The position numbers and the translations under genes are program-made. A DNA stretch of 42,238 bases from the IMG/VR virus record IMGVR_UViG_3300032302_000137, positions 1-42,238 of that record. The stretch is one strand, 5' to 3'. This document shows positions 26,879 through 38,278 of this stretch, in pieces. The notes beneath the pieces are model-generated. The model had not been told where the DNA came from, did not search any database, and worked only from the letters and a program-made list of their open reading frames with translations. Source of the DNA: a virus. Its lineage: Duplodnaviria > Caudoviricetes. The stretch's first letter is position 1; the number at the start of each line of letters is the position of its first letter.

Positions 26879-27784
26879 TCAGAATCCCAGGTCTAAACCC
26901 TTGGCTTCGTCCAGGGCACGTTCCGCGGCACTGGCCCCGGTGTACCGGTCGATCATGGCCCTGGAACTCCATCCGGCGATAGCCATTAAACCGCCCTCAG
27001 AGCCGCCGTGAAGCAGCCAGCGGGTCGCCGCGGTGTGGCGGGTGCGGTGCGGGTGGAATCCCTTCACACCGGCAGTCTCAGCGCGAGCTTTCAGGGTGGA
27101 TACCAGGGTGTGATATTGCATGGGGGTGCCCCAGGCGGTGATCCAGAACTTGTCGTTACCGGGCTTGGCGGATTTGCGCCGTGCCCGAAGGTAGCGGTCC
27201 AGCGAGGATGCGGTGGCAGCGGAGAACGGCACCACCCGGCCCTTGCCGCCCTTGCCCTTGACAATGACGGCTTTCATGGCCGACAGGTCAAGGTCATCTA
27301 TCCGCATTCCCACCAATTCCGCACTGCGCGTGGCGGTTTCAAACATGAACCGCAGGATCGCCTCGTCTCGCAGGTCGATGAATTTGGAGGACTTGCTGAC
27401 ACCGGCACGCTTGCAGGCTTTCAGCATGGCGGTGACCTGATCGTCGGACAGCGACGGCACCACCTTGTCGTTCTTGCGCGGTGGCCCCATCCCCAGGAAC
27501 GGGTCCGCGTCGGTTTCGCCCTCCTCGCGCAGCCACTTCACGAACGACTTCAGCGCATAGTGGCGCAGCCGTGCGGTGTTGGGTTCGGTGCCTGCGGCTA
27601 GGGTGGCGGCATGAAACTTCTGGATGCTCAGTTTCAGCAGGGGATCCCCGATCCCGTTGGCCTCGCACCATTCCAGGTAGCAGACCGCCGACCGGGTGTA
27701 GCTGTTGAGCGTTTGGGGCGACTTATTCAGCGCAGCCAGGGAAATCCGCCACGATTCGACCAGTTCCAGCAACTCTTCGACCAT
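26879..27784 (-). CDS. int: tyrosine recombinase/integrase (Xer-like, no arm-binding domain)
   Basis: SAM-like N-terminus. Catalytic R (TATRSAE), K (KGKGGK), HxxR (HRTR), W (AGWSS), Y (DRYT). Confidence 0.93.
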   Translation of the reverse strand: MVEELLELVESWRISLAALNKSPQTLNSYTRSAVCYLEWCEANGIGDPLLKLSIQKFHAATLAAGTEPNTARLRHYALKSFVKWLREEGETDADPFLGMGPPRKNDKVVPSLSDDQVTAMLKACKRAGVSKSSKFIDLRDEAILRFMFETATRSAELVGMRIDDLDLSAMKAVIVKGKGGKGRVVPFSAATASSLDRYLRARRKSAKPGNDKFWITAWGTPMQYHTLVSTLKARAETAGVKGFHPHRTRHTAATRWLLHGGSEGGLMAIAGWSSRAMIDRYTGASAAERALDEAKGLDLGF

Positions 27785-30359: not shown

Positions 30360-30974
30360 CTATATCCTTTCGATCTGATGGAACCCAAGTTCCACCGGAG
30401 TATCCCGACCGAAGATTGAAACCAGAACATGAAGCTTCCTGCGTTCAACATCGACCTCACTAACAGAGGCGTGATACCCGGTGAACGGACCATCCATAAC
30501 GGTAACCGCATCCCCGATGGAGAAGTCGCAAACAATCACATTTGCTGCGGTGGGATCCGCACCAACCTGACCCTTGACCTCTTTTACCGGAGGGGGGAGC
30601 AGGAACTTGATAACGTCGCCCAGGGCGAGGGGTGTCGGAACCGTAGTGGCCCCGACGAACCCGCTCACCCCAGGCGTATTTTTGACCACGGTCCACGCCT
30701 CGTCAGTCAACTCCATGCGGATCAACATGTAACCCGGCATGATGGTCTTTTTTGACTGTTTGCGCTGACCGTTCTTGAACTCGACAACGTGATAGGTGGG
30801 AACTTCCACCTGAAATATCACGTCCTCTAGCGCAAAGTTTGCGACTCGCTGTAACAGATTGGTCCGGGCCATGTTTTCGGCACCGACCTTGGCGCGAGCC
30901 ACATACCAATCCCCAGGAAGGGACCGGAGTTCTGCTGCGAGGATTTCCGCGGGATCAGTTGTTTCGGTACTCAT
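30360..30974 (-). CDS. nusG: NusG-like transcription elongation/antitermination factor
   Basis: NGN domain ([34 protein letters not shown]) and KOW domain ([35 protein letters not shown]). Confidence 0.95.
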
Positions 30975-36883: not shown

Positions 36884-36920
36884 ACCTCCTCCTTTCCTCG
36901 TATATTTTTTTCCCCCTTCG

Positions 36921-36999
36921 TGGAGCCGTGGGGAATCGAACCCCAGTCCAAACCATTCCGACTTGCGGGTTTAAGGTTTGTCGATACCATTCCGGCCCC
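36921..36999 (-). ncRNA. minimal tmRNA-like RNA (tRNA-like domain only)
   Basis: GGGGCCG-GAATGGTATCGAC-AAACC...GGTTTG-GAC-TGGGG-TTCGATT-CCCCA-CGGCTCC-A. G3.U70 acceptor stem, stemless D loop, no tag ORF. Confidence 0.8.
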
Positions 37000-37013
37000 T
37001 CGATACAGATAAG

Positions 37014-37057
37014 CGGCCCACGCTAGAATCGAACTAGCGACCACACCATGTGGGCCG
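37014..37057 (-). ncRNA. miniature tRNA-like RNA (acceptor stem + T arm)
   Basis: GGCCCAC-ATGGTGTGGTC-GCTAG-TTCGATT-CTAGC-GTGGGCC-G. Confidence 0.7.
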
Positions 37058-37198
37058 TCCGCACGCGCACGCGTGCGATATAGCCGTTCTCCCTTACCCT
37101 GCGGAAGAGTTGGCTATCCCGATAGTGCTAGACCCACGCCTACAGCTAGGGCAACTAACAGTAAAAACGAAGCCAACTCCACTTAAAGGTAGTCCTTT

Positions 37199-37453: not shown

Positions 37454-37550
37454 TTCCTCTCTTTCTCTTGTTTTAGTGCTGGCGCACTAGGACCGCCACG
37501 AGGGGAAACAGGAGGAGGAAAACCCCCATGGCGGTCCTGCTGCGCCAGAC

Positions 37551-37730
37551 CTACAGAGCTTTGGCGAATTCCTTATCTGCGGCATAAACCACTTCGATGA
37601 AACCTTGAGACGAGAGTGACTCTAGGTATTCATTTTTGTGGTGACCGCAGAACGCCAATTCCATGTTGGATTCTGACTTGGTAAACCGGGACTGTGCCCT
37701 AGCACCGCACCGGTCACAAAGAATGACCAT
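37551..37730 (-). CDS. small zinc-finger protein
   Basis: CDRCGARA...LAFCGHH. Confidence 0.65.
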   Translation of the reverse strand: MVILCDRCGARAQSRFTKSESNMELAFCGHHKNEYLESLSSQGFIEVVYAADKEFAKAL

Positions 37731-37877
37731 TCTTACTCCTCTTTTTCTCACAGGGAAAGGGTGAAAAGGGTAGGCCGCAAGAATGTGCAGCGGATTTATC
37801 GGTAGGCTTACAGTCGCCTGGTCCCGCCTACCCTTTTCCTCTCCCCTTTTTCTATCTCCCCACGGTTTGGGAAGTCT

Positions 37878-38222
37878 TTAGTCGTCGTCGCCGCAGCAAT
37901 CCGACTCGTCGCAAGATCGACACTGTTGGCATTCGTCGCACCAATCGCTGTCACCCTGACCGCAGTAATGACACCAGTAGCAGCATGTAAGGCCACAGTG
38001 GGTACAGTTCTCACAGTCAGCGCACCAATCACTGTCACCGCGACCGCAAGAGCGGCAAAAGTTTTCACAATCGCAGCCCTCACAGTATTTACAGATCGTG
38101 CAGTCAGCGCACCAATCACTGTCACCTTCACCGCACTTGCGGCAATATGGCCTGGTGGCGATGCCAAGTTCTGACTCAAACCAGTCAGCCATTTCCTCCT
38201 CCAATTTCTCCTGTTTGGTCAT
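37878..38222 (-). CDS. Cys-rich repeat (metallothionein-like) protein
   Basis: Three CxxCGxGDSDWCxxCxxC repeats. Confidence 0.65.
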   Translation of the reverse strand: MTKQEKLEEEMADWFESELGIATRPYCRKCGEGDSDWCADCTICKYCEGCDCENFCRSCGRGDSDWCADCENCTHCGLTCCYWCHYCGQGDSDWCDECQQCRSCDESDCCGDDD

Positions 38223-38278
38223 TAAGACCCCAAGGCGCACAGCCCGGTAAATATCTGTGCGCTATGGGGACGTAACGC

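Follow-up and report, generated by a model that had tools for sequence, protein, structure and literature searches.

A tRNA top-half mimic beside a mini-tmRNA in an uncultured phage genome

We identified in the genome of an uncultured phage a 45-base element whose sequence is predicted to take the form of a tRNA top half, with a 7-bp acceptor stem, a 5-bp T stem and a canonical T loop, and with an 11-nt linker in place of the D and anticodon arms. Comparison with a diverged relative suggests that this mimic is probably selected. The explanation that we favour, tentatively, is that it may be a conserved t-element-like cutting signal for host RNase P and 3′-end enzymes, which would set free a minihelix as well.

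The window, i.e. the whole stretch of DNA that was analysed, is the complete virus record of 42,238 bases, and the genome is estimated to be 57% complete. It has PHROG matches and codes for a primase-helicase and a tyrosine integrase as well as an amidase, an AAA ATPase and a NusG homologue. The best matches of the ATPase in cultured phages are those of Mycobacterium and Gordonia phages (34–38%), and the full NusG homologue at 30360–30974 (minus strand) has matches in 245 of the 251 genomes from one actinobacterial class, the best at 56–58%; nothing claimed here depends on those of the genomes that are marked as unpublished. In one of the top NusG genomes, G237, the nusG region is 78–81% like Nocardia and Tsukamurella records. 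From these sequence matches we infer that the host probably belongs to the mycobacteria or their kin.

Sequence, predicted fold and selection on shape

The features of the locus are collected in Table 1. The original prediction had placed the mimic 14 nt upstream of a mini-tmRNA on the same strand, and bases 37013–37000 indeed separate G73 from position 36999. Also as predicted, the GGCCCAC/GTGGGCC stem can be extended by a C–G pair between C-1 (37057) and G73 (37014), and the T arm, read at 37038–37022, is perfect and joined directly to the acceptor strand. No CCA is encoded. The linker looks like the GG of a D loop joined to the end of a variable loop, a likeness based on comparison with a host-type tRNA-Asp and with the D loop of the DS6A mini-tmRNA. 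An 8+5 register, the acceptor/T arrangement of the tRNA-Sec/His type, was set aside, as the mimic would then begin with C1.

Table 1. Coordinates of the mimic and the features around it
Feature	Position	Strand	Evidence or remark
Message-less (TLD-only) mini-tmRNA, G3–U70 and A73	36918..36999	minus	RF00023, 61.7 bits, E 1e-22
Variable spacer between mimic and mini-tmRNA, 13 nt	37000..37012	minus	Run and L002 comparison
tRNA top-half mimic (C-1 to C74)	37013..37057	minus	Sequence, shuffle control, homologue L002, run edges
C74 of mimic	37013	minus	Sequence
G73 of mimic	37014	minus	Sequence
3′ acceptor strand GTGGGCC	37021-37015	minus	Sequence
T arm GCTAG-TTCGATT-CTAGC, 5-bp stem	37038-37022	minus	Sequence
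Linker ATGGTGTGGTC in place of D and anticodon arms, 11 nt	37049-37039	minus	Sequence
5′ acceptor strand GGCCCAC	37056-37050	minus	Sequence
C-1 of mimic	37057	minus	Sequence
Hairpin B, next to the predicted RNase P site on its 5′ side	37060..37077	minus	Folds in window and L002; stem sequence differs
Hairpin A, two stacked stems from the stop codon of the small ORF	37080..37117	minus	Same fold in L002; stems changed
22-codon hydrophobic ORF, likely small membrane peptide	37114..37182	minus	L002: 22 codons, similar hydrophobic product

A descriptor scan for strict Watson–Crick pairing in acceptor stem and T arm alike returned the mimic as its sole match in the window and gave no match in 300 dinucleotide-shuffled windows; when G–U pairs were permitted, the shuffles yielded 0.01 matches per window. 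In ViennaRNA predictions, the acceptor pairs of the isolated mimic have probabilities of 0.84–1.0, which fall to 0.42–0.50 when the window copy is folded within a 300-nt context, compared with 0.68–0.92 for the copy in the homologue L002 in its own context. The T stem reaches 0.41–0.61 in the isolated piece and 0.41–0.69 across folding models, and in the minimum-energy fold of the isolated mimic the linker takes part in an alternative pairing.

Standard annotation passes over the mimic: ARAGORN called no gene there, and Rfam gave no match to RF00023 and none to RF00005 even at E-values up to 10. Relaxed ARAGORN calls (20 and 41 in the two phage contigs), including a permuted-tmRNA call over the mimic region, were discarded as noise. 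An Rfam hit to plastid-ycf2 on the other strand scored 22.9 bits, below the 65.7 required, and is explained by the T-arm hairpin alone. No U-run lies behind the mimic and the terminator scan reported nothing at the locus, while the promoter scan found two sites against 2.3 expected, both on the opposite strand.

Evidence bearing on selection comes from L002, a locus in a 70-kb contig (G002) that is colinear with the window in blocks of 66–92% identity. The two copies of the mimic agree at 35 of 44 positions (~80%), and of the nine differences, six fall in stems and three in the linker. All 13 pairs are nevertheless kept in L002, by two double-sided changes (C4–G69 to U–A and A6–U67 to G–C) and two wobble changes (G2–C71 to G–U and one T-stem U–A to U–G), the varying pairs in mid-stem being 4 and 6. 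The six stem changes are all transitions, and six random stem changes restricted to transitions keep all pairs in 5.6–7.6% of trials; random placement keeps all pairs with two double changes in ~2%, or in <0.1% if any substitution is allowed. A column-shuffle control on the two-sequence alignment was not significant (109/500). With two clearly diverged copies, the window and L002, the statistics are modest, and the pairing pattern is fair, not strong, evidence for selection on shape.

The linker of L002 keeps ATGGTG and the final TC at an unchanged length of 11 nt and differs in its middle three bases. Both of the TGG motifs that the original prediction had pointed out are present in the window, whereas the second is lost in L002. 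Common to both copies are all seven T-loop bases, the first TGG, G73, C74, and the 7+5 geometry. The linker has the same length in L002, and a recent deletion from a full tRNA is therefore not indicated; a full tRNA at this place in a relative would have refuted the original prediction, and L002 has the short-linker form. Among 116 mini-tmRNA loci, a top half near the mini-tmRNA that pairs perfectly across a short linker and has no alternative reading as a full tRNA is present at L002 alone. The covariation search proposed with the original prediction thus yielded one homologue with every pair kept, and its claim of a selected top-half mimic, and not a decayed tRNA, is borne out at the strength given above.

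Distribution, neighbours and module edges

A model built from the two sequences (R1), of low sensitivity such that distant members would be missed, was searched against 89 records, comprising 85 viral contigs with mini-tmRNAs (of 116 loci; the 31 loci left out were mostly near-duplicates) and four cultured phages. Four records matched, one of them a true homologue, the contig of L002. The other matches were ordinary tRNAs, the T arm of DS6A, or a stretch in DS6A gp81 that has no T loop; R1 found no homologue of the mimic in the other 84 mini-tmRNA contigs, DS6A or Alone3, and no second top-half element in DS6A. Of 151 genomes of the family of G237, 12 gave weak matches, and the five inspected contained no such element. 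None of the 50,697 phage records compared by BLAST with the cassette, the mini-tmRNA and the mimic contained a homologue of the mimic. The exact T-arm pattern occurs in at least 119 loci in viral contigs, which are tRNAs and unrelated T-arm hairpins, and the linker of the mimic is absent among the matches listed. Linker and acceptor patterns in viral contigs recovered the contig of L002 as one of 17, one of eight and one of eight matches, the rest being tRNAs or chance; both stems were intact in none of the 41 metagenome and none of the 29 genome matches to such patterns. As protein anchors, the 146-aa ORF had no match and the AAA ATPase led to the contig of L002 only. Judged by sequence matches, the mimic is confined to one lineage in the viral, metagenome and genome scans done.

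Two other kinds of hairpin were seen in these scans. Short-linker T-arm hairpins of another family, with a CACT/AGTG stem directly before a ribosome-binding site, occur in several viral contigs (L132, L144, L145, L164, L168, L186, and L205). A metagenome motif at L270, L274, L287, and L294 has a T-loop-like hairpin between CCTGA and GAAA and is neither a tRNA nor the mimic.

The neighbouring mini-tmRNA is identical in the window and L002 and is of the same type as the TLD-only tmRNA of mycobacteriophage DS6A (PMC4131195, PMC11915505). A pattern search returned 116 viral loci (L001–L116) with such message-less tmRNAs, of which 80 are distinct, with lengths of 71–90 nt; many share an AA-CC hairpin motif in the P2 loop, and all 80 have G3–U70 and A73 (G3 was fixed by the search pattern). 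The mini-tmRNA pattern of this lineage had no match in metagenome contigs. The tRNA cluster of Streptomyces phage Alone3 contains an unannotated message-less tmRNA candidate (L254, 2001–2079) together with two unannotated tRNA-like stretches (L254, 1868–1997 and 2080–2220), one of which has a long insertion at the place of the anticodon arm.

Upstream of the mimic, the 22-codon ORF has no Pfam match, and its five changes in run X2, read by hand, are three synonymous and two conservative. The loop of hairpin A takes the run variants at 37100 and 37102, and a search with its pattern found the contig of L002 only. The ORF and hairpins A and B could make up an RNA that would receive its 3′ end through cleavage by RNase P. 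Further upstream on the minus strand lies a long hairpin at 37470–37555 (~27 bp, −53 kcal/mol), kept in L002 at 1772–1852, whose loop shows CCTCCTCC, a Shine–Dalgarno complement; it is possibly a small regulatory RNA. A second long structured intergenic element at 37750–37850 (minus) is largely kept in L002 at 2030–2150 and matched no Rfam family at the gathering score. Finally, a 120-aa protein of Cys-rich repeats (CxxCGxGDSDWCxxC) encoded at 37878–38240 (minus) is kept in L002, with no Pfam or PHROG match.

Contigs from eight public DNA runs were aligned to the locus; none of the sequencing runs listed as containing it is an RNA run. Six of them cover the mimic (X2, X3, and X4 from one study, which may be the one that yielded the window; X5, X9, and X10 from three others), and X7 and X8 do not. 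The one change recorded inside the mimic across runs, differences at segment ends not being recorded, is in X5 and is the same T-stem wobble as in L002. In X5, identity ends at 37059, upstream of which 140 nt are swapped for 122 other letters. In X9, one contig at a depth of 3.1, identity runs as far as 37013 (C74); instead of the mini-tmRNA, a GGAGG site and an ATG come within the 30 letters that follow. With identity edges at about −3 and at C74, the mimic therefore appears to behave as a unit independent of either neighbour. The spacer has three changes in X5 and three in X10, and is replaced and longer in L002. Behind the mini-tmRNA, the sequence differs among X2, X3/X4, X5, and X7, and different ORFs are exchanged right behind the tRNA-like elements between runs, both read from loose contig ends. 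Taken together, the sequence comparisons indicate that the locus is a region of small-cassette exchange.

Possible roles of the mimic

As a t-element-like cutting signal, the mimic would be transcribed within the long leftward transcript of the phage and would fold as a tRNA top half, with the linker GG forming the elbow. Its 5′ end would be made by host RNase P and its 3′ side, behind G73/C74, trimmed by host 3′-end enzymes, and CCA would likely be added, so that the leftward transcript would be split and a minihelix of ~45 bases set free. For the upstream piece (22-codon ORF with hairpins A and B) this would mean a 3′ end protected by a hairpin, and for the downstream piece, carrying the mini-tmRNA or, in X9, an ORF, a new 5′ end.

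E. coli RNase P efficiently cuts, at the canonical site, a model substrate made up of an acceptor stem, T stem and T loop (PMC11143913), and the elbow is also the point from which RNase Z and CCA-adding enzymes measure (PMC4810234). The missing CCA would be no bar to processing, since most tRNA genes of one mycobacterium (30 of 45; PMC10435456) and of G237 (26 of the 42 parsed, with 16 encoding it) also lack it. In YrlA, a 7-bp acceptor stem suffices for cleavage and CCA addition in a mycobacterium (PMC4201824). As RNase P, RNase Z and the CCA enzymes read the top half and YrlA sets a precedent, processing of the mimic is likely under any reading. We favour the cut over the released piece as the function because the mid-stem pairs vary, because plant t-elements offer a functional precedent (PMC1920247), and because the mimic lies between swappable units; free variation at pairs 4 and 6 would fit an enzyme that reads shape. 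Several points count against a cutting signal. In a hairpin model substrate, a C-1/G73 pair made RNase P ~10-fold slower compared with U-1 and promoted cutting at −1 (PMC3874170), and this pair is conserved in the mimic. Furthermore, a second cutting signal 14 nt from a mini-tmRNA that is likely an RNase P substrate itself looks redundant, and the low predicted probability of the T stem, the small number of diverged copies (two), the non-significant column shuffle and the single low-depth contig of X9 also weigh against it.

The main rival reading, possible if doubtful, is that the released piece matters instead, as a decoy or sponge: a CCA-ended minihelix would titrate a host factor that recognises tRNA by its acceptor end and T arm. 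Candidates would be AspRS/EF-Tu and defence enzymes such as Cas12a3-type nucleases, nucleotidyltransferase toxins and toxSAS. Some enzymes require no more than the top half of a tRNA, and the neighbour offers a parallel, as TLD-only tmRNAs of its type are reported to inhibit tmRNA, perhaps by titrating SmpB (PMC4131195). The specific form of this idea, a free CCA-ended tRNA-Asp-like minihelix acting as decoy in a cassette of two mimics, one for SmpB and one for a defence enzyme or synthetase, is unlikely. Over the terminal three pairs and the discriminator, L002 matches the tRNA-Asp of G237 at seven of seven positions and the window at six of seven; the G2–U71 wobble of L002 matches the same tRNA and occurs in 1 of 43 tRNAs; G1–C72, G2–C71 and G73 are bacterial Asp acceptor determinants (PMC9976931); and C74 is kept in both copies and is the edge of identity in X9. 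However, the Asp match, though suggestive, does not reach significance in a look-elsewhere test: ends generated at random from G237 position frequencies equal some host tRNA end 51% of the time. Over the whole top half tRNA-Val(CAC) is slightly nearer to the window copy (16/25, against 15 for tRNA-Asp). With no anticodon arm, the mimic lacks the GUC anticodon and C38 of tRNA-Asp identity, and the anticodon determinants of bacterial AspRS are the strongest (PMC9976931), so poor charging is expected. In addition, a loose end in X7, with 30 letters visible, hints at a variant with A71–C72, which is not Asp-like, and no partner or target gene for a decoy was identified. In view of this look-elsewhere result and of the t-element precedent, we rank processing above the decoy.

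It is rather unlikely that the mimic is an old remnant of a tRNA or mini-tmRNA, kept as a stable stem-loop at a cassette boundary for stability or as a recombination anchor, with its T loop present by descent. Such an origin would agree with the resemblance of the linker to joined D and variable loops, with the exchange of ORFs behind tRNA-like elements across runs and with confinement to one lineage; moreover, the 80% identity of the mimic to L002 is not above that of the genome-wide blocks, while the mini-tmRNA is identical. Yet ~20% divergence has altered neither the exact 7+5 geometry and the linker length nor the seven T-loop bases, the first TGG, G73 or C74, features that a plain hairpin would not need, and neither a U-run nor a terminator call marks the mimic. 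The original prediction had suggested a signal for release of the mini-tmRNA, and a dedicated signal of this kind, freeing the 5′ end, now appears very unlikely, even though the mimic adjoins the mini-tmRNA on the same strand in the window, L002, X2, X3, X4, X5, and X10. The mini-tmRNA carries its own 7-bp acceptor stem and T arm; among the 89 records the mimic accompanies it in the contig of L002 alone; the spacer varies in length and sequence; and a ribosome-binding site stands in its place in X9, which is why the mimic is probably not dedicated to it. Last, an attP-type copy of the 3′ end of a host tRNA is next to negligible in probability: the phage does encode a tyrosine integrase (26879–27784), but this gene is 9 kb off, an att core needs neither the 5′ acceptor strand nor compensatory changes, and the best match among 42 G237 tRNAs covers 16 of 25 stem and discriminator positions.

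Relation to known tRNA-like RNAs

The mimic shares with tRNA (RF00005) the 7-bp acceptor stem with discriminator and the 5-bp T stem with a TTCRANY loop; unlike tRNA, it has the 11-nt linker for its D and anticodon arms and cannot decode. With the t-elements of plant mitochondria, it shares a tRNA-like form with a conserved T arm and a place inside a longer transcription unit. These were proposed as signals for RNase P and RNase Z, and after their release C and A that the genome does not encode are added to them (Forner et al. 2007, PMC1920247). In contrast to them, the mimic belongs to a phage and not an organelle, has 42 nt between its stem ends and no D or anticodon arm (the cox1 t-element has 74 nt), and differs from the t-element search motif GGTTCRANYCC at both outer bases of the T-stem flank; t-element ends are mapped transcript ends, whereas the mimic is known here from DNA sequence alone. 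Minihelix and hairpin model substrates of RNase P also stack the acceptor stem on the T stem and T loop (PMC11143913). Those are synthetic, while the mimic is natural and genome-encoded, its two halves connected through 11 nt of linker in which a GG is conserved, with CCA not encoded.

RF01684, the family of mascRNA and menRNA, had no match at 37013–37057 at the gathering score. MascRNA keeps a small extra stem and comes from a vertebrate lncRNA context. It is described in general terms as a small tRNA-like RNA cut by RNase P from a longer transcript (PMC4810234). The TLD-only tmRNA of DS6A is, like the mimic, a phage tRNA-like RNA with no anticodon, but the mimic has C3–G70 and G73 in place of the G3–U70/A73 alanine identity and lacks a D loop ending in UCGAC, the P2 helix, and the GGAC connector. 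YrlA Y RNAs of mycobacteria and mycobacteriophages have a tRNA-like module that is cut by RNase P and receives CCA in a mycobacterium; they possess a D arm, which the mimic lacks, a Ro60-binding stem and a Ro60 gene nearby (PMC4201824). No Rfam Y RNA matched at the mimic, and PF05731 (Ro60/TROVE) matched neither of the two records, which are 57% and 84% complete. By this comparison, the mimic is not a member of the tRNA, tmRNA, mascRNA or YrlA families and would work like a t-element or mascRNA.

We found no published example of a natural phage minihelix in a literature search that covered few subscription papers. Minihelices are familiar as substrates in the laboratory, and t-elements as features of organelles; the mimic would be a selected 45-base phage version. 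Missed by ARAGORN and Rfam, it gives an idea of the minimum size of a tRNA mimic in a living system, and it would allow one to test directly whether a given host enzyme reads the top half on its own. If the mimic is only transcript punctuation, it would extend tRNA punctuation to phages. If it is a decoy, it would represent a new kind of counter-defence, made of RNA only, directed at tRNA-tail-attacking enzymes, and no natural minihelix gene before it would have had a function assigned.
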